Positions 4,553 through 53,831 of a stretch of DNA of 64,000 nt are shown here, one piece after another. The stretch covers positions 43,224 through 107,223 of the forward strand of contig JBHLMQ010000008.1 of NCBI GenBank assembly GCA_048938005.1, written 5' to 3'. The DNA is from Promethearchaeota archaeon (lineage in GTDB: Archaea > Asgardarchaeota > Lokiarchaeia > Sigyniarchaeales > SOKP01). Under the pieces are notes generated by a model, which was not told the origin of the DNA, made no database searches, and was given only the letters and a program-made list of their open reading frames with translations. Position 1 is the stretch's first letter. Every line of letters begins with the position of its first letter. The position numbers and the translations under genes were made by a program.

Positions 4553-6205
4553 TTATTCTCTCATCTCTTTTGGAAGAGTTAAAACCCCTGTAAGAGGATT
4601 ATTTAATGGATCTTGGCAATATTGGATGGTAAAATAAATTAAATCATATAATATGCTTGGATTCTCTCCATTCTTTAATTTATAATCATACAGGGAAAGT
4701 TGATACTCCGCCTCTGTTATTGGTGGTTCTGCATAAGAAACACTCCCAAAGACGGACTGAAGCAACGGTTTTAAGAATGGGCTATACAAGAACCCCAACT
4801 CTTTTAAAACATCTTTTAGATAGAAGAACATGCGTTGCACAGCCTGCATCATATATTTTACTGGCTGATTTTCAGGTCCTAAATATTGTTCTGCAAATTC
4901 AGGATCGTATTGTGCAAGTTGTTCCCGTGTAATATTTTGAGGTCGGAATAAAGAAATCAATCCCCTCTCAATTGCCCCTTGACGATTTATTGCAATTGTT
5001 TCGCTCCCCGCATCGGGTACCCAAATTCCCTTTTCTAATAATTTTCTTGCTTTATAACACATCGCCTGAATCAACATTCCAATTCCTATTCTTCGACAAA
5101 TAGATATCTGTGCATCACTAATCCTAACTTCGATCGTACCCCAATCTGTGAAGGGAAATACATCTTGGAAGCGTCCATCCTCTAAACTCGCTTTCTGAAC
5201 AGTTTGGAGGAAATAATTTTGTGAATTCTGATCTGTGGAAGTTAAATAGGGTATATAATATTTTGGATTATTTCCACTTAACATTGTAGTATTATATTTC
5301 AATCTTAATGACCTAACGCAGTTAGGTGCGGTAATTCTTCCGTTAATAATTTTAACAACATCAGTCGGTTTATTATTTAAAATAGGTGAATTGCAGGTGA
5401 GAGCAATAATATGTGGTATAAAATTCCGTATCATACAATATGCTTGAACTTTTTCTATCTCAGATTGAAACGTTCCTAAATGACTATGATCTGCTTGGGA
5501 TACTCCTCGCATATATTCACGGGTTGCAGGATTTATCGCAGATGCGATTATATGTAAGTCTTTTGGTAGAGTAGCTTTTGCTAATAAGAATAGAGTGCTT
5601 GCCCAATATGCTAATTCTTCAATATAAGCACAAGGTGGTGTTACAAGCTCTAATATATAAGTAATTGCCGTTACATTTCCATCTCTTGCAAAAGAATCAA
5701 TATCGACAGAAGAATCTCCCAAAGCATAGCGTAAATTCATAGCATACCCCTTTTCTAGATCATCTCGACCCCAAGGTCTAGCTAAAACTTTTTGTCTAAT
5801 ATAGTCAGGAACGGGTAGAAAATCATCTCTCCCATCATATAGAATTTGATCCATAATTTTAATGGCGTCCTTTACAATTTCTTTCATCCGAAAAACCATT
5901 TCTTCTCCAGGAGGATAATCTCCATTGTCATCGGCAATGATTAATTCCATTTCAATACCATGAGTGAATGGTAAAGGGGTCCAATGTTCAGTATCCCAGA
6001 GCATCTCCGCCCATGGTCTTTCAGGGATATGAACTTCTCGATAATCTGTCCCTAGAAATAATTTATCACCTGATCTGTCTATGCTTTGTCCCAATGAAAC
6101 ACCAATCTTGCCTTTTTTAGCATATAACTGGGAAAAAGTATCAACTTTCTGTCCGGTTTTCTTTTTCTTCTTTTTCTCTTTCTTCTTTTTCTTATCTTTA
6201 GCCAT
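4553..6205 (-). CDS. Glutamate-cysteine ligase family 2 (GCS2) / carboxylate-amine ligase
   Basis: 'HGIEMEL', 'LELVTPPC', 'HSHLG' and 'GTIEVRISD' motifs of the GS/GCS fold. Lys-rich N-terminal tail. Confidence 0.8.
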   Translation of the reverse strand: MAKDKKKKKEKKKKKKTGQKVDTFSQLYAKKGKIGVSLGQSIDRSGDKLFLGTDYREVHIPERPWAEMLWDTEHWTPLPFTHGIEMELIIADDNGDYPPGEEMVFRMKEIVKDAIKIMDQILYDGRDDFLPVPDYIRQKVLARPWGRDDLEKGYAMNLRYALGDSSVDIDSFARDGNVTAITYILELVTPPCAYIEELAYWASTLFLLAKATLPKDLHIIASAINPATREYMRGVSQADHSHLGTFQSEIEKVQAYCMIRNFIPHIIALTCNSPILNNKPTDVVKIINGRITAPNCVRSLRLKYNTTMLSGNNPKYYIPYLTSTDQNSQNYFLQTVQKASLEDGRFQDVFPFTDWGTIEVRISDAQISICRRIGIGMLIQAMCYKARKLLEKGIWVPDAGSETIAINRQGAIERGLISLFRPQNITREQLAQYDPEFAEQYLGPENQPVKYMMQAVQRMFFYLKDVLKELGFLYSPFLKPLLQSVFGSVSYAEPPITEAEYQLSLYDYKLKNGENPSILYDLIYFTIQYCQDPLNNPLTGVLTLPKEMRE

Positions 6206-14544: not shown

Positions 14545-15734
14545 AATTGACATCAGAAGAGCAAGAAATGCTGGATGGCAAGTATGGAAAAGCTACCAAG
14601 AAGTCTATGGAAATTTTAACTACACTAGGTGATATATTTGATGCTGAAAACATGGTTGAGGTTTATGGAGTCCAGATAGCTGGTGTTTCCTATGCAAATC
14701 TAGGTGAAGCGGGATTAGAATTTTTAAATGAAATGGCAGAAGATGGTAAGGTTAGAGTTTTAACGACTTTGAATCCAGCAGGAATGGATCGTGAAAATTG
14801 GAAAGCTTTAGGGATAGATGAAGAATTTGCTAAAAATCAGAATCGCGCAATTGATGCTTTTGCTAAAATGGGTATAATTACAACATGTTCTTGTACTCCA
14901 TATTTAATTGGAAATGCTCCACACTTCGGTCAACATCTCGCATGGGCTGAAAGTAGTGCTGTATGTTATGCAAACTCAGTTATTGGTGCTAGAACAAACC
15001 GTGAGGGCGGCCCAAGTGCTTTAGCGTCAGCCATTACAGGAAAAACACCAAAATATGGTTATCATTTGGATGAAAATCGGTATGGGGAAGTTTTAGTAAA
15101 AGTTAACACTCACATTAAAGGTACAGACGAATTTGGGGTATTAGGAAAAATAATTGGAGATAAATTGGTCGAACTGGGAAAGAAAATACCGTATATTACA
15201 GGAGTTCCTTCTGCTACAGTTGAAGAGCTAAAATCATTTTGTGCGTCTGTTGCGACTTACGGTGGAACAGCATTATTCCATATGGAAGGAATTACTCCAG
15301 AATATAATAAATATCCTACTCCAAGTGAAATAATATTTGAAATTAATCAAGATGATATAGATAAAACACGATTGGAACTTATTGATGATGTTATTGAAAT
15401 AGATTTTGTTAGTATAGGGTGTCCTCATGCTTCAATTCACGAAATCGCTAAGATTGCGAGCTTATTGAAGGGAAAGAAAGTAAAAAAAGAATTTTGGATT
15501 ACAACTGCACGACCTACTAAAAGAATTGCTGATGAAGCGGGTTACTCAAAAATAATAGAAGATGCAGGAGCGAAATTTGCGGCAGATACTTGCTGTGTCG
15601 TTGCTCCAATTAAGGGACGTTTCAAAGGTATGATGGTGGATTCAGCAAAAGCATGTTATTATGGTCGGGCTAAAAATAAATTTAAAATCACAATTGGTTC
15701 AGTTGAGAAATGCGTGGGGGAGGCAACAAAATGA
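14541..15734 (+). CDS. Phosphomevalonate dehydratase large subunit (aconitase X catalytic subunit)
   Basis: 'TTLNPAG', 'CSCTPY', 'AWAESSAVCYANSVIGARTNREGG', 'GCPH', 'DTCCVVAP'. Confidence 0.9.
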   Translation: MKLTSEEQEMLDGKYGKATKKSMEILTTLGDIFDAENMVEVYGVQIAGVSYANLGEAGLEFLNEMAEDGKVRVLTTLNPAGMDRENWKALGIDEEFAKNQNRAIDAFAKMGIITTCSCTPYLIGNAPHFGQHLAWAESSAVCYANSVIGARTNREGGPSALASAITGKTPKYGYHLDENRYGEVLVKVNTHIKGTDEFGVLGKIIGDKLVELGKKIPYITGVPSATVEELKSFCASVATYGGTALFHMEGITPEYNKYPTPSEIIFEINQDDIDKTRLELIDDVIEIDFVSIGCPHASIHEIAKIASLLKGKKVKKEFWITTARPTKRIADEAGYSKIIEDAGAKFAADTCCVVAPIKGRFKGMMVDSAKACYYGRAKNKFKITIGSVEKCVGEATK

Positions 15735-16123
15735 AGTTGGAAGGAAGAAAAATTTATAAGGGTACTGCTAAGGCGGAAGCAATCGTTACCAATGACGGTA
15801 TTTCATTTTATGGTGGTGTTGATCCTGATACAGGGAAAGTAGTTGAAGTTGGACATGAACTTGAAGGTCAGTCGGTAACAGGAAAAGTTTTAGTATTTCC
15901 AACAGGCAAGGGGTCTACAGTAGGATCTTATACCATGTATAGAATGAAAAAGAATAACATGGCTCCTGCTGCAATCGTCAATAAACAAATCGATACAATT
16001 GTTGCAGTAGGGTGTATTATCAGTGAAATTCCTTGCGTGGATAAAATTGATATTAGCTATATAAAAACTGGACAAGTTGTTATTGTTAATGGTTTAGAAG
16101 GAACTATAGAAATAATAGATTAG
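15731..16123 (+). CDS. Phosphomevalonate dehydratase small subunit (DUF126 swiveling domain)
   Basis: 'ISFYGGVDPDTG', 'GKGSTVGS'. True start is probably ATG 15731, an ATGA overlap with the upstream stop. Confidence 0.9.
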   Translation: MKLEGRKIYKGTAKAEAIVTNDGISFYGGVDPDTGKVVEVGHELEGQSVTGKVLVFPTGKGSTVGSYTMYRMKKNNMAPAAIVNKQIDTIVAVGCIISEIPCVDKIDISYIKTGQVVIVNGLEGTIEIID

Positions 16124-16139
16124 TTTCATTTTAGAATTT

Positions 16140-17150
16140 ATGAAATCTTCTGCAATTGCTCATTCAAATATTGCGCTAATAAAATATTGGGGTAATTGGA
16201 ACAAGGTGTCCCCAGAACTAAATATTCCTTTAAATGATAGCGTAAGCATGACGAAATATGGGTTATCGGAAAATACTCACTTAAAAGCTCATACTACAAT
16301 AGAATTTTCAGAAGATTTCAAGGAAAATGAAGCAAAATTAAATAATAATCTATTAAAAGGAAGAGATATGGAAAGGATTCTAAAAATCATTAATCCATTA
16401 AGAAAATTAAAAAAAATTGATTACAAATTCAAAATGATGAGTTTTAATGACTTTCCTACCCAAGCAGGTTTGGCATCTTCCGCAGCGGGTTTTGCAGCAC
16501 TTACTATTGCGGCAGCAAAAGCATTAAATTTAGATTTAACGCAAAGGGAATTATCTACATTCGCAAGATTAGGTTCTGGTTCTGCAGCACGCTCTATCCA
16601 CGGAGGATTTGTATATTGGCATCGGGGATTCTCCCATGAAACCTCCTATGCAGAACAAATATGTGGTCCAAATGATTTTGACATGGATGCAATTATTGCC
16701 ATAATAGATGAAGGAAGAAAGGATGTAACATCTGATTTAGGTCATGAATCGGCAAAGACAAGCATATTTAATACAGTACGAGTGAAAAAATCGCATGAAC
16801 AAGCTGAAGAAATCAAAAAAGCAATTCTAGATGATGATTTTAAGAAAGTTGGAACAATTGCTGAAAAAAATTGTATATTTATGCATGCAGTAATGATGAC
16901 ATCTAGACCAGCTTTATTTTATTGGAATCCAACTACTTTAAGAGTAATAAAGAAAGTGCTAAATATTCGAAAATCTGAAAATTTAGATTGCTTCTTTACC
17001 ATCGATGCAGGACCGAATGTACACTGTCTATGCAGACCAGAAATTAATAAACATGTTCAAAATATCTTAGAAAATATTGAAGGTGTCGAAAAAACTATTC
17101 TTGTAAAGCCTGCTAATGATTCTTCTACGACAAATAAGCATTTGTTTTAA
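16140..17150 (+). CDS. mvaD: GHMP-family (di)phosphomevalonate decarboxylase
   Basis: 'NIALIKYWG', 'FPTQAGLASSAAG', 'ARLGSGSAARS', 'FTIDAGPNVH'. Confidence 0.88.
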   Translation: MKSSAIAHSNIALIKYWGNWNKVSPELNIPLNDSVSMTKYGLSENTHLKAHTTIEFSEDFKENEAKLNNNLLKGRDMERILKIINPLRKLKKIDYKFKMMSFNDFPTQAGLASSAAGFAALTIAAAKALNLDLTQRELSTFARLGSGSAARSIHGGFVYWHRGFSHETSYAEQICGPNDFDMDAIIAIIDEGRKDVTSDLGHESAKTSIFNTVRVKKSHEQAEEIKKAILDDDFKKVGTIAEKNCIFMHAVMMTSRPALFYWNPTTLRVIKKVLNIRKSENLDCFFTIDAGPNVHCLCRPEINKHVQNILENIEGVEKTILVKPANDSSTTNKHLF

Positions 17151-17311
17151 TACTACTTAAAATATTTATTCTAATATTTCATTCAACTTATTTTATCCAA
17201 CTTTTTAAATAAAGTCAAAAATTATTTAATTAAGTAATAGATTAAGTTATTTTTATAAATTTGAATTTTTTCAAATTCTATTATGTCATACGAGTATAAT
17301 TGGTGAAGAAT

Positions 17312-18278
17312 TTGGGATCTGGAATAGGATATGGAAAGACCATACTTTTTGGCGAAATTTATTTCCCATTTCAGGAATAAACGCAATCATTTTGTTGTAT
17401 ATGGCCTTCCAGCAATTGTATCAGCTTTAGGATCTTTTACAACCGCGGAAGTTAAAATTCTTAAGGGTAATGGTTGGACGGTTGATGATCAAAGACCTGC
17501 AACACCCGGTTATAAAAAAAAGAAATTTAATGAAGCAAAAAAATCAATTAAAAATATAATTGAGTATTTAAATATAGATATAGAGAATCAAAAACTTGAA
17601 ATAAAATTTGCTGGGGACTTAATCGCCGCGAGTGGAGTAGGTGCTTCAGCAGCTCAATGTACATCTCTTTCTCGAGCTTTAAATAACACATTTAATCTTA
17701 ATCTAAACAACGAAAAGATAAACGAAGCTGCCTATGAAGGAGAGAAAGCATACCATGGAACCCCTTCGGGCATCGATAACACAGCCTCTACTTATGGTGG
17801 TATGATTTGGTTTGTAAAAAATTTGAGTGGGGGAAAAAATACTATGGATCTTCTGCAATCTCCAAAAAAGATACCTTTAGTAATAGCAAATTCAGGAATA
17901 ACAGCTTCAACAACAGAAGTTGTTGCCGATGTTCGACGTTTAAAGAAAGAAAATCCAGAAAAATTTGACAAAATCTTCAAGAAATATGAAAAATTAGCAG
18001 AAGAGGCAAAAAAAGCCTTGATTGAAGGTGATATCACTACTATTGGTAATCTAATGAATCAAAATCATAAATTACTACAAGATATTACGGTATCTGGAGA
18101 GATTAATGATAAACTAATTGATATATCCTTACAAAATGGAGCTATTGGTGCTAAAATGACAGGAACAGGGCGGGGTGGCTTGGTTATAGCGCTAACAGAA
18201 AATGAGAAACTACAAGATAAGATTGCCAAAGCAATTGAAAAAGAAGGATATGATGCCTGGAAAACCATGATTGGATGA
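17312..18278 (+). CDS. mvk: Mevalonate kinase, split gene: exon 1 17312..17356, exon 2 17388..18278
   Basis: TTG at 17312 after a GGTGA RBS encodes MGSGIGYGKTILFGE; the frame resumes at 17388 with HFVVYGLPAI. Also 'SGVGASAA', 'HGTPSGIDN', 'GAKMTGTGRGG'. Confidence 0.9.
17357..17387 (+). other. Putative 31-nt BHB-like (tRNA-type) intron in the mvk mRNA
   Basis: Removal restores GEH exactly. Internal hairpin, helix GGCG/CGCA, bulges AA|A and AT|C. Contains an in-frame TAA. Confidence 0.75.
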
Positions 18279-20184
18279 GTGTGAGTTAAAATTGAAAAAT
18301 ATTAATGAGATAATTCTGTTAAAATTAGGCGGTAGTATATTAACTGATAAGAATAAACCTTTTTCTCTTAGAGAAGAGATTTTAGAAAAATGTCTTAATC
18401 AAATTATTGAAAGTAAAAAACCAATTATTTTAATCCATGGAGGTGGATCATTCGGGCATCCAATTGCTAAAAAATATCAAATTTCTCAAGGATTAAATAA
18501 ATCTGTTAAGGATCAGATAATAGGGCTTTCCAAAACCCATGAAACTATGAATAATTTTAATTCTATAATAATAAAGAAATTATTAGATAAAGGATATCCA
18601 GCAATTTCGATTCAACCTTCTAGTATTTTTATAAAAGATTTTAATCAAATAAATATAAAAACTATAGAACCAATTGAAAAATTGCTTGAACTTAGAATAA
18701 TGCCCGTTCTATATGGTGATATTATTTTAAGTTGGGATTCTTATTTTTCAATTCTTTCAGGAGATCAAATTATTTTAAAATTATGCGAGAAAATTCAAAA
18801 TTTTAAGATTTCAAAAGTTATTTTTGCTATTGAAAAGGATGGCATATACATTGAAGATAATGGAAAAACTAAACTTGCTTTAAAATTAAAAACCAAAGAT
18901 TTAGCTGAATTAAAATTAGCCAACTTAGATCAAAAAATAGATGTAACTGGAGGTATAAAAGGGAAACTTGAAACTATTAAAGAGATTATAAATTTCAATA
19001 TCCCTGTTCAAATTATTAATGGGCTTAAAAATAAAAATATCCTTAAAGCATTAAATAACCAATATTTAGAATGCACTAATATTGAAGTATCTCCCGATGA
19101 AAAATTTGTTAGAAAACTGTACAATAGGAAGATAGAACACATTAAAATACCTTTAGAGTATAATGTTCAACATAGAAAGAATTATTTTGATGATATTAAT
19201 CTAATTCATTATCCCCTCCCAGAGATTGAATTAGATGACATTAATCTTTCTGTAGATTTCTTTAAAAAGAAAGTATCCGCTCCTATATGTATAGCCGCAA
19301 TTACGGGAGGGCATGAAATTTCCAAAGCAATTAATAATATCTTAGCAAACGCAGCAAAGACAGAAAATATTATTATGAGTGTTGGTAGTCAGCGAATAGG
19401 ATTAGAGGATCCCTCTACTATTGATTCTTTTAAAATTGTTCGTGATGTCGCACCCTCTATTCCTGTAATAGGAAATTTAGGAATAGGACAGATATGCGAT
19501 CCCGATTTCAATTTAGATGTTTTTAAAAAATGCATTGAAATGATTAATGCGGATGTTATGGCTATACACTTCAATGCTTTACATGAACTAGTTCAAAGGG
19601 AAGGAAACATTTCCTATAAAAATTTTGAAGAAAAATTCAAAGAAATAAGAAAAAATTTGAAGATTCCTATTATAGCAAAAGAGGTTGGCACAGGCTTTAA
19701 TAACGAGTTGGCTTTAAAGCTAGATTTACTCGGATTTGATGGATTTGATGTTGGAGGAACAGGAGGTACTAGTTTTGCTGCAATAGAGTCAATACGTGAT
19801 GAAGATAGCTATGAAGTTTACACTCGGAAAATAGCAGAGACTTTTAGAGAATGGGGCATTCCAACACCAATTAGTATTATGAATGTCAGAAAAGTATCTA
19901 AAAAATTAATTATAGCAACTGGAGGTTTACGATCTGGTATAGATATTGCCAAATCAATTGTTTTAGGTGCTGATATTGGGGGTTTTGCATTTAAATTTTT
20001 AAAGACAGCATGGAGAGACTATAAAAACAACACACAGTCGAATACACTCAAAGAAATAAAAACTTTGAAGCAAGAATTAAGATCTTCCATGTGGTTGATG
20101 AATATGGATAATCTTAAAAAATTAAAAAGCAATAACGACAAAAGGGTATTAGTGGGCGAATTGTATCAATGGGTCAATCAATAA
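18271..20184 (+). CDS. Fused isopentenyl phosphate kinase and type 2 isopentenyl-diphosphate isomerase
   Basis: N-terminal 'LKLGGSILTDK', 'HGGGSFGH', 'SGDQI', 'DVTGGI'. C-terminal 'RKIEHI', 'AITGG', 'VGSQR', 'KEVGTG', 'GGTSFAAIE', 'EWGIPT'. Confidence 0.93.
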   Translation: MDECELKLKNINEIILLKLGGSILTDKNKPFSLREEILEKCLNQIIESKKPIILIHGGGSFGHPIAKKYQISQGLNKSVKDQIIGLSKTHETMNNFNSIIIKKLLDKGYPAISIQPSSIFIKDFNQINIKTIEPIEKLLELRIMPVLYGDIILSWDSYFSILSGDQIILKLCEKIQNFKISKVIFAIEKDGIYIEDNGKTKLALKLKTKDLAELKLANLDQKIDVTGGIKGKLETIKEIINFNIPVQIINGLKNKNILKALNNQYLECTNIEVSPDEKFVRKLYNRKIEHIKIPLEYNVQHRKNYFDDINLIHYPLPEIELDDINLSVDFFKKKVSAPICIAAITGGHEISKAINNILANAAKTENIIMSVGSQRIGLEDPSTIDSFKIVRDVAPSIPVIGNLGIGQICDPDFNLDVFKKCIEMINADVMAIHFNALHELVQREGNISYKNFEEKFKEIRKNLKIPIIAKEVGTGFNNELALKLDLLGFDGFDVGGTGGTSFAAIESIRDEDSYEVYTRKIAETFREWGIPTPISIMNVRKVSKKLIIATGGLRSGIDIAKSIVLGADIGGFAFKFLKTAWRDYKNNTQSNTLKEIKTLKQELRSSMWLMNMDNLKKLKSNNDKRVLVGELYQWVNQ

Positions 20185-50418: not shown

Positions 50419-51945
50419 ATGAGATTAAAAAAAATTAAAGTCCTTTCTAATGATGAAATACAAGCTATACACTCTGCATCTATTGAACTTCTATCTAAGG
50501 TAGGAATTAAAATAGATTCTCCTTCAGCAAGAAATTTATTTAAGGAAAATGGTGCTGAAGTTAGCGATAATGATCTTTTTATTAGGATCCCAGAATCTTT
50601 GATAAAAGAAAAATTAAAAGAAGTTCCAAATTCATTTAAATTGCATGGACCTGATGGTAAATTTAATTTTGAAGTGAATACAACATCCACACAGTTTGCT
50701 ACTATTGGAACACCTGTAAAAATTTATGATCCAAGTAAAAAAAGTGGCATCAGAAAAACTGTATTAGATGATACGATAAAGCAAATTAGGATTGTAGACT
50801 CCTTAAAAAACATAAATTGTTCTCATTTAGATGTATGGCCTAATGATGTTAACTATCTCTCCCTTCATGTTCATTGTATTTATCAATGGGTTCATAATAC
50901 CCGTAAGCCATATGGTCTTGGTTGTTGGGGAAGGGTAGTAAGTCAAGATGTAATAAATATGGCATCTATTATTGTGGGAAGTGAGGATGAGCTAATTAAA
51001 AATGCTCGATTTGTAGGTTTCATGAATCCTACCTCTCCACTACATCTACCCCAATTAATGACGAACGGTCTTGAAATTTTTGCAAAATATAACCAACCTA
51101 CAATAATCGCTCCAGAAGCTCTTGCTGGGGCAACAGCACCTGTAACTATGGCAGGACTTTTAACTCAAATTAATGCTGAGATTATTGGAGGAATAATTCT
51201 CACACAAATTTATAAATCTGGAGCACCAGTATTTTTTGGAACGGTTTCTACTATAACGGACATGAAATCTGGAAATGCTGCCTTAGGCTCGATTGAAACT
51301 GGACTTATTACTACCGCAATTGCGCAAATGGCTCGATTTTATAACATACCGTCGAGAGGACCTGGTGGGATTACAGATTCAAAAGTACTTGATGTCCAGT
51401 GTGGCTTCGAACGATTACAAACATTATTAGTAGCAGCTCAAGCTGGGATAAATTATATCACTTGCGCAGGAACTTACGAAGAAACTCTGGTAGAATCGTT
51501 AGAACTCCTTGTAATTGATGATGAGTTAGTTGATATAGTAAAACGTTTACTTGAAGGAATTAGTGTAGATGAAGACACAATTGCGCTAGATGTTATAAAG
51601 AAAGTAGCTTCAAGCCCAAAAAAAGGAGTAAATTATCTCGGCGAAGCACACACCCGCAAATATATGCGAGAAGAACTATTCATTCCTTCCTTAATTGACA
51701 GAAATAGACGTTCAACATGGCGTAAAAAAGGGGCAAAAGATATTATTGGGAGAGCGGGAGAAAAAGTAAAACAAATCCTTCAATCATTTATTCCACCAGA
51801 GTTAGACAAGGGAATTGAGAATGAGCTTTTAGATTATATTAAAGAAGTTGAAAAAAGAACATTAGAGTATTATAAGAAGGCAGAAGGTATATCGGCAGGG
51901 AAGGTATCTCTTCCAGGCACTGAAATATCCATTAATGATCAGTAG
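50419..51945 (+). CDS. MttB-superfamily methyltransferase, non-pyrrolysine type
   Basis: 'SPLHL', 'GATAPVTMAG', 'AQMARFYNIPSR', 'DSKVLDVQCGFE'. No in-frame TAG. Confidence 0.9.
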   Translation: MRLKKIKVLSNDEIQAIHSASIELLSKVGIKIDSPSARNLFKENGAEVSDNDLFIRIPESLIKEKLKEVPNSFKLHGPDGKFNFEVNTTSTQFATIGTPVKIYDPSKKSGIRKTVLDDTIKQIRIVDSLKNINCSHLDVWPNDVNYLSLHVHCIYQWVHNTRKPYGLGCWGRVVSQDVINMASIIVGSEDELIKNARFVGFMNPTSPLHLPQLMTNGLEIFAKYNQPTIIAPEALAGATAPVTMAGLLTQINAEIIGGIILTQIYKSGAPVFFGTVSTITDMKSGNAALGSIETGLITTAIAQMARFYNIPSRGPGGITDSKVLDVQCGFERLQTLLVAAQAGINYITCAGTYEETLVESLELLVIDDELVDIVKRLLEGISVDEDTIALDVIKKVASSPKKGVNYLGEAHTRKYMREELFIPSLIDRNRRSTWRKKGAKDIIGRAGEKVKQILQSFIPPELDKGIENELLDYIKEVEKRTLEYYKKAEGISAGKVSLPGTEISINDQ

Positions 51946-53606: not shown

Positions 53607-53671
53607 ATAATTGTTTATATATTACTATATAATTTTACTAATATATTATTATTTTGACTTCAAACATAAAG

Positions 53672-53831
53672 TGCGGGAAGGGAGATTTGAACTCCCGAAC
53701 TCCTACGAGAATGGGTATCTCCAATTAGAATATCTATGGCACTATAAACTTTTAATGATCTGAGCCCATCGCCTATGATCGACTTTTTATCAAGCTCGTA
53801 TTAGCCATTGACCAAACTTGGCAATTCCCGC
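53672..53831 (-). tRNA. tRNA-Leu(CAG) with two introns (D-arm 53807..53775; canonical 37/38 53758..53717)
   Basis: Acceptor stem GCGGGAA/TTCCCGC, D stem GCC/GGC, anticodon arm ATGGG-CTCAGAA-CCCAT after splicing, long variable arm, GTTCAAATC T-loop. Confidence 0.93.

Follow-up and report, generated by a model that had tools for sequence, protein, structure and literature searches.

A predicted 31-nt intron of the relaxed bulge-helix-bulge class in the mevalonate kinase gene of a Promethearchaeota archaeon and its relatives

In the genome of a Promethearchaeota archaeon, the conserved GKTILFGE/HFVVYG motif of mevalonate kinase (mvk) is interrupted by a 31-nt insert (here and below, the slash marks the junction), which raises the question of how a full-length kinase could be produced from this gene. 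The window analyzed here is a stretch of 64,000 nucleotides of contig JBHLMQ010000008.1 (positions 43,224 to 107,223), and coordinates refer to it unless a contig is named. The Glu codon GAA occupies positions 17354-17356, the insert positions 17357-17387, and the His codon CAT positions 17388-17390. The frame of exon 1 belongs to an ORF (17300..17380) which ends at a TAA codon at 17378-17380, while the frame of exon 2 is open up to position 18278. A sequence-only reading of the window had described the insert and the premature stop at these same positions, which our analysis reproduces to the letter, and had interpreted the insert as a tRNA-type intron of the kind cleaved by the archaeal splicing endonuclease EndA.

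The identity of the gene is well supported. Exon 2 alone scores 214.8 bits against the NCBIfam mevalonate kinase profile TIGR00549 (profile positions 11-276), above the curated cut-off of 163.05 bits, and the N-terminal motif is present as well. The match of an intron-less mvk orthologue (234.4 bits, profile positions 3-276) starts at profile position 3; exon 1, whose residues 8-15 correspond to profile positions 3-10 as aligned in that orthologue, thus supplies the missing start of the domain. mvk is the sole gene above the mevalonate kinase cut-off in this 95%-complete genome, the single other GHMP-kinase match being 28% identical and below the cut-off. In all 41 orthologues read in the genus, the 15-codon exon-1 protein is kept, with synonymous variation, and exon 2 shows 70-85% identity over 296 open codons, with zero stops in any orthologue. 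Neither an intact mvk elsewhere in the genome nor a decaying exon 2, which the sequence-only reading had set against its own interpretation, was found.

mvk sits inside a mevalonate-pathway gene cluster (Table 1). As an MVD-family gene lies beside the AcnX gene and mvk, eukaryote-type and archaeal mevalonate-route genes stand side by side in this cluster. The TTG start of mvk is preceded by GGTGA in this genome; in all intron-less and some intron-bearing relatives, the stop of the AcnX gene directly abuts an ATG start of mvk.

Table 1. Positions of the mvk exons, the predicted intron and its structural elements, the neighboring genes, and two similar inserts located elsewhere in the genome
Feature	Position	Strand	Remarks
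AcnX small subunit	15710-16123		mvk cluster
MVD-family gene	16140-17150		TIGR01240, 247 bits; between the AcnX small-subunit gene and mvk
mvk exon 1	17312..17356	+	15 codons, TTG start; M-G-S-G-I-G-Y-G-K-T-I-L-F-G-E
Exon-exon helix, 5' strand, GGAAAGACCAUA	17333..17344	+	RNAalifold
Central helix H, 5' strand, GGCG	17351..17354	+	in exon 1; pairs with 17382-17385
5' bulge AA/A	17355..17357	+	predicted cut after 17356
Intervening sequence, phase 0 (proposed HBh'/BHL-type intron)	17357..17387	+	31 nt; 36 loci with, 27 without
Intron hairpin h'	17358..17381	+	17358-65 with 17374-81, loop 17366-73
Central helix H, 3' strand, CGCA	17382..17385	+	in intron; nearly invariant though non-coding
3' bulge or loop AU/C	17386..17388	+	predicted cut after 17387
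mvk exon 2	17388..18278	+	296 codons plus TGA (18276-78); begins HFVVYGLPA
Exon-exon helix, 3' strand, UAUGGCCUUCC	17400..17410	+	95.2% of cells paired, compensatory change absent
Isopentenyl-phosphate kinase (NF040647) / type-2 IPP isomerase (TIGR02151) fusion	18271-20184		one 637-aa ORF
purA (adenylosuccinate synthase) insert	G000:C11:159185-159215; locus L104:1586-1616	minus	31 nt
Zinc-ribbon/LOR-family (PF04525) insert	G000:C11:146203-146232; locus L105:804-833	minus	30 nt

Contigs assembled from three runs belonging to three studies (X2, X3, and X7) cross positions 17357-17387 with neither indel nor joint, so the insert is intact in independently obtained DNA; the contig of a fourth run (X13) ends at position 17361. 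We searched 54 genomes of the genus, 42 of which carry mvk, with a readable N-terminus in 41 cases. An insert is found at exactly the same site in 26 of these 41 orthologues (31 nt in 24 of them, 30 nt in two), and in the other 15 GAR is directly followed by CAY. Named contigs of relatives, mostly entitled 'Promethearchaeota/Promethearchaeia archaeon' (28 of 42; we take the kingdom Promethearchaeota to be the Asgard group), yielded 40 readable N-termini: 18 are junction-identical to loci already counted, 10 are new loci with a 31-nt insert, and 12 are new loci without it. Altogether, 63 distinct loci could be compared, of which 36 carry the insert, always at the same site, and 27 lack it. The predicted junction GAR/CAY is contiguous in every intron-less locus (27/27). 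The insert is absent from more distant mevalonate kinases of the order (L022-L025, L027, and L030), which read GE/H or GD/H unbroken.

On a tree of exon 2 (40 rows), the intron state changes at least six times, and at least four of these changes are required by branches with good support. Of the intron-less genes, eight branch off at the base and seven fall within groups of intron-bearing genes. Such a distribution points to precise loss or allele replacement having occurred repeatedly, as described for cbf5, and the intron is most likely a tolerated element, repeatedly gained and lost, rather than a regulator. A covariance model of the mvk intron matches the mvk site only in its own genome and gives one match per intron-bearing genome in the genus (26 of 54 genomes); by this model, no paralogous copy of the intron was detected in the own genome or in the 54 genus genomes. 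One additional weak match (genome G061, E 0.006) was discarded, being located within an intact 306-aa membrane ORF in antisense orientation.

The structure of the insert was measured on an alignment (A3) of the 36 intron-bearing sequences. RNAalifold found helix H, hairpin h', and the exon-exon helix unaided. In this alignment, 90.0% of the cells of the model are paired, versus 39-46% with slid partners, and five pairs (18 cells) are changed on both sides. The covariation score of the model is reached by none of 500 shuffles, although shuffle counts overstate significance because the relatives are kin. In helix H, the sequence-only reading had noticed that GGCG (17351-54) and CGCA (17382-85) can pair at three of four positions, and the helix is supported across the 36 loci. 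Pair 37-67, which links the third base of a Gly codon to the intron, is CG in 32 loci, UA in three, and UG in one; pair 36-68 is GC in 34 and GU in two; and pair 38-66 is GC in all 36. The fourth pair is a G.A mismatch in 27 of the 36 loci. Where the Gly codon is GGT, the intron CGCA is changed to CAC in three of four such loci, but the three UA cells of pair 37-67 may stem from only one or two evolutionary events.

The hairpin that had been proposed within the insert comprises 8 bp, one of them G-U (17358-17365/17374-17381), and appears in minimum-energy folds. Over the 36 loci, 86% of its cells are paired and it is kept by compensatory changes, as four of its eight pairs are changed on both sides; for example, the inner pair 46-61 is UA in 13 loci, CG in seven, AU in four, and UG in four. 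The 3' bulge is followed by a single invariant closing pair (U17350-A17389, 36/36). Further out, the exon-exon helix is conserved without covariation: 10.6 of its 11 pairs can form in intron-bearing genes, versus 7.7 of 11 in intron-less ones.

Selection on the coding sequence next to the insert is visible at synonymous sites, which we compared in 25 intron-bearing and 14 intron-less genes (L012 and the partial L053 were left out). Synonymous diversity over the 10 codons preceding the intron is 0.51 bit in intron-bearing genes versus 0.99 bit in intron-less genes, and about 1.0 bit in both groups over the rest of mvk. The four lowest of 227 windows in intron-bearing genes are those of the codons before the intron, whereas the same region ranks 136 of 225 in intron-less genes. 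In addition, when the letters of the insert were shuffled 200,000 times with the exons fixed, no shuffle reached three helix pairs plus eight hairpin pairs, and 17 reached six hairpin pairs.

Folding energy computed from the single sequence is not significant relative to shuffles (z -0.40 for 76 nt and z -0.73 for 87 nt), and the single-sequence fold pairs GGCG with exon 2 and not with CGCA. Such folds prefer GGCGAAAU paired with exon 2, and the resulting alternative helix joins UGGCGAAAU to AUUUUGUUG of exon 2 (17350-17358 with 17389-17397). This helix is pairable in 92.9% of cells over the 36 loci; it shows no compensatory change, its partners are constrained by coding, and it leaves the conserved intron CGCA unexplained. 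It would hold both splice sites together and competes with the central BHB helix. From modeled folds, it might represent an additional conformer, or else a by-product of the U-rich codons. Judging from the comparison of loci, the insert is a conserved and real intervening sequence under selection at the RNA level.

To which class of introns might it belong? In the canonical hBHBh' motif, a 4-bp helix separates two 3-nt bulges on opposite strands, and each bulge is bordered by another helix. The insert departs from this motif, since a single U-A pair stands beside the 3' bulge and the fourth pair of H is mismatched in most loci, but it retains the elements of the 5' half, namely H, the 3-nt bulge, and the 8-bp h'. 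The insert corresponds instead to the relaxed HBh'/BHL forms as defined in PMC5829648 and PMC6379350, with one bulge intact between H and h', compensatory changes in the helices, and the 3' site in a loop. The caveat of the sequence-only reading that the motif is relaxed and BHL-like was therefore right. Its prediction of the junction holds equally well: a cut after the second bulge nucleotide restores Glu-His in 36/36 loci and gives the junction seen in the 27 intron-less loci. The same cut position, past the second of the three bulge residues, is the one applied to cbf5 in PMC2738675.

The genome contains two EndA-family genes, encoding proteins of 198 and 205 aa (gene regions G000:C26:1893-2117 and C56:18923-19171), and one RtcB. 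The 198-aa protein (alpha-like) can be aligned over its full length with PDB chains 3p1z_B and 3ajv_B, named in the search output only as 'tRNA-splicing endonuclease' and which we take to be Aeropyrum pernix EndA. The alignment covers the specific loop of 3p1z_B (broad specificity), Lys included. The 205-aa protein (beta-like) has a Ser where 1a79_A has a His, presumably the catalytic one. According to PMC5829648, the Lys of the specific loop is K44, Asgard EndAs are (alpha-beta)2 enzymes with a specific loop, and this type cuts relaxed HBh' introns. On the basis of these alignments, the host appears to encode the EndA type that matches relaxed motifs, plus RtcB.

Other inserts bounded by similar motifs were searched in the whole genome by combining HBh' geometry with ORF fusion. 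Strict settings returned mvk plus two further cases, purA and a LOR-family gene, both of which the sequence-only reading had missed. The purA insert falls inside the Asp codon of the W-G-D/E-G-K-G-K P-loop (phase 1). purA is a single-copy gene, and its exon 2 matches the adenylosuccinate synthase profile from position 14 onward with 497 bits. Half of the purA orthologues in the genus (15/30) carry an insert (31 nt in 13, 30 nt in one, 32 nt in one) and the other half (15/30) do not. The purA fold consists of a helix H formed by GGGG and CCCU, bulges AG/C and AU/A, and a hairpin; 86.1% of the cells of H and hairpin are paired, versus 30-49% with slid partners, and five pairs are changed on both sides. 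In the LOR-family gene, H pairs at 4/4 positions and the hairpin has 10 bp. Seven of 30 orthologues (L136-L165) carry an insert at the same site, five carry a 27-30-nt insert located 9-12 nt upstream, and 18 are contiguous, so that there are two neighboring insertion sites within one gene.

At loose settings, real geometry was no commoner than shifted decoys (5408 vs 5243-5493, 2373 vs 2296-2421, and 54 vs 31-69), and no enrichment of any length class was found in this genome scan. As hits equal decoys at loose thresholds, the scan finds candidates but cannot count introns. None of the other listed candidates resembled a split gene: by eye, those inspected closely were gene junctions or wrong-frame or low-complexity peptides, and candidate C13:33177-33208 looks coding. 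From the sequences compared, the mvk intron appears to belong to a small set of 27-32-nt mini-introns sharing the same build in this genus.

We consider it probable (roughly 0.8) that positions 17357-17387 form a genuine archaeal intron of the bulge-helix-bulge class, in its relaxed HBh'/BHL form, spliced by EndA and RtcB. The tRNA-type, EndA-style intron originally proposed is strongly supported by presence and absence at 63 loci, compensatory changes, and synonymous constraint. In the pre-mRNA, the last bases of exon 1 (GGCG) would pair with CGCA of the intron. The 5' splice site would then fall within the 3-nt bulge that separates this 4-bp helix from the 8-bp intron hairpin. On the 3' side of the helix, the 3' splice site would be located in a loop, which is closed first by one U-A pair and then, more distally, by the 11-bp exon-exon helix. 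A two-subunit EndA would cut after the second base of each bulge and RtcB would join the exons, giving TTT GGC GAA/CAT TTT, with TTTGGCGAA/CATTTTGTT as the expected spliced junction, and a full-length kinase. We infer both cleavage and ligation from DNA.

Other explanations can be envisaged. The insert could be removed from the RNA by means other than EndA and RtcB, such as another nuclease and ligase or a guide-RNA-dependent process, in which case the BHB-like fold would be incidental. The relaxed 3' site, the unremarkable single-sequence energy, and the possible alternative helix would be compatible with such a scenario. However, three unrelated genes share the 4-bp helix, the 2+1-nt bulge, the hairpin, and the 4-nt and 2-nt spacing, the EndA cut rule yields the correct protein junction in every case, and the genome encodes the matching type of enzyme, so we regard this scenario as unlikely. 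Alternatively, mvk may not be repaired at all, being either a decaying pseudogene or a gene whose exon 2 is made from an internal start as part of an N-terminally altered protein. Indeed, an ATG at 17331 opens a 315-aa frame running through the insert into exon 2, which an annotation pipeline would call. Yet this ATG is the out-of-frame reading of TAT-GGA, in which TAC replaces TAT in 9 of 23 Tyr codons (25 intron-bearing orthologues), and a stop occurs just before CAT in that frame in 5/36 loci. The protein sequence of exon 1 is moreover conserved in its own frame, exon 2 has its first ATG only at codon 139, the sole mevalonate kinase gene is intact in 36 species-level genomes, and single-copy purA has the same pattern, all of which makes an unrepaired gene very unlikely.

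Two further scenarios leave the insert in the mRNA. In translational bypass, the ribosome would take off at GAA and land before CAT. A hairpin-containing insert of about 30 nt with an early stop within a conserved ORF does resemble known bypass elements (T4 gene 60 and yeast mitochondrial byps), and the hairpin is conserved across loci. Bypass nevertheless requires identical or cognate take-off and landing codons, whereas the take-off codon is GAA in 36/36 loci and the triplet preceding CAY is AAT, AAA, TAT, TAA, or TAG. Furthermore, hopping does not account for the purA insert, one of the three, whose junction interrupts a codon (phase 1). Exon GGY also covaries with intron CRC, 4 nt upstream of the 3' boundary, as would suit EndA geometry but not a landing site; bypass is in our view highly improbable. 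As for a programmed ribosomal frameshift, 31 equals 30+1, and in this genome one +1 shift made ahead of the TAA would be enough to enter the frame of exon 2. But two of the 36 inserts are 30 nt long with in-frame stops, at odds with a +1 site, and in five of 36 the last triplet, adjoining CAT, is TAA or TAG when read in the frame of exon 2; together these exclude frameshifting, which would also place 10 foreign residues within a conserved motif. An assembly or sequencing artefact is contradicted by the presence of the insert in independent assemblies from three studies and in 36 genomes. We give frameshifting or artefact virtually no credence.

If mvk is spliced by EndA and RtcB, the process would share with HAC1/XBP1 the spliceosome-free removal of a short intron by a protein endonuclease and an RNA ligase, with a change of frame. 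The ligase is RtcB in animals. The sequence-only reading had extended this parallel to regulation. However, the HAC1/XBP1 nuclease is IRE1 and not EndA, and its splicing is a stress-regulated switch, whereas intron-less relatives do without the mvk intron and show that it is dispensable; nothing points to regulation.

To our knowledge, EndA-dependent splicing of protein-coding mRNA in archaea has been described only for cbf5 of some Crenarchaeota. The cbf5 pre-mRNA intron (Desulfurococcales and Sulfolobales; PMC2738675) likewise interrupts a protein-coding gene and has a relaxed BHB motif, termed 'unconventional'; as proposed for the mvk intron, each cut is predicted to fall past the second of the three bulge residues, a hetero-oligomeric EndA is needed, and the distribution is patchy, with gain and loss among close relatives. 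The predicted introns reported here differ from it in lineage (Promethearchaeota, i.e., Asgard-type), in host genes (mvk, purA, and a LOR-family gene, cbf5 of this genome being contiguous and without an intron), in number (at least three genes in one genome versus one), and in their very uniform small size (27-32 nt). Spliced cDNAs exist for cbf5, whereas the mvk intron is known here from DNA alone. Similarly, HBh' tRNA introns such as that of M. kandleri tRNA-Glu (20b/21; PMC5829648) have one good bulge between H and h' and a relaxed other site, and are cut efficiently by the (alpha-beta)2 EndA with specific loop, the type reported for Asgard. In the case of mvk, by contrast, the host RNA is an mRNA. 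An 11-bp exon-exon helix built from coding sequence stands in for the tRNA body, and this helix places a constraint on synonymous sites.

A search through the main text of freely available full-text papers did not turn up any description of BHB introns in protein-coding genes of Asgard archaea, or in mvk or purA. In the review PMC6379350, the sole citation for the pre-mRNA BHB motif is Yoshinari et al. 2006, which, on our reading of PMC2738675, is the cbf5 work. The predicted mvk intron is an addition to the cbf5-type mRNA introns of archaea.

EndA splicing is hereby implied for essential metabolic genes, involved in the synthesis of isoprenoid lipid precursors and AMP, in at least three genes of one genome. 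One practical consequence is that gene callers will report such split genes as truncated or frameshifted, so that mevalonate kinase or adenylosuccinate synthase may be mistakenly recorded as absent or defective in metabolic reconstructions of these genomes. These introns also provide minimal natural substrates (27-32 nt), with dozens of variants, for studying the action of broad-specificity EndA on non-tRNA RNA, as well as a clean system for intron gain, shift, and loss between species.

A broader hypothesis, which we find possible but rather doubtful as a whole, is that the genus holds mobile HBh' mini-introns of about 30 nt, inserted perhaps by reversal of the EndA/RtcB reaction beside runs of G-rich codons, and that several essential protein-coding genes have been colonized. 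In this 30%-GC genome, the exon strand of the 4-bp helix would then come from Gly or Trp codons, and from one species to another introns would be acquired, moved by a few bases, or lost. Splicing of mRNA by the tRNA machinery would be routine and genome-wide, and might even be conditional, possibly coupling lipid and purine synthesis to EndA/RtcB activity. Asgard archaea are the archaeal group closest to eukaryotes; should this hypothesis be true, mRNA splicing by tRNA machinery would be routine in close prokaryotic relatives of eukaryotes.

The sequence-only reading had also compared the bulges of mvk with those of a tRNA-Leu carrying a D-arm intron, but no such tRNA was detected in the window by ARAGORN, by Rfam (gathering score, and E<=1), or by a search for the T-arm motif. 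At the genome level, ARAGORN predicts only 30 tRNAs when introns are allowed, and 21 of these contain an intron, which suggests that many disrupted tRNA genes escape detection. About six of these 21 introns fit the helix and bulge geometry within 2 nt of their boundaries; their use as a control for the geometry was rejected, as the boundaries are too unreliable. Within the window, ARAGORN reports a tRNA-Asn(att) with a 65-nt intron at 53671-53831 (minus strand) only when introns are allowed, and this tRNA is doubtful because it is seen neither without that option nor by Rfam. Finally, positions 51370-51469 show a sub-threshold match (31.2 bits, versus a gathering score of 38) to Rfam PYLIS_3, the mttB pyrrolysine insertion element, in which the UAG of the model aligns to AUU.
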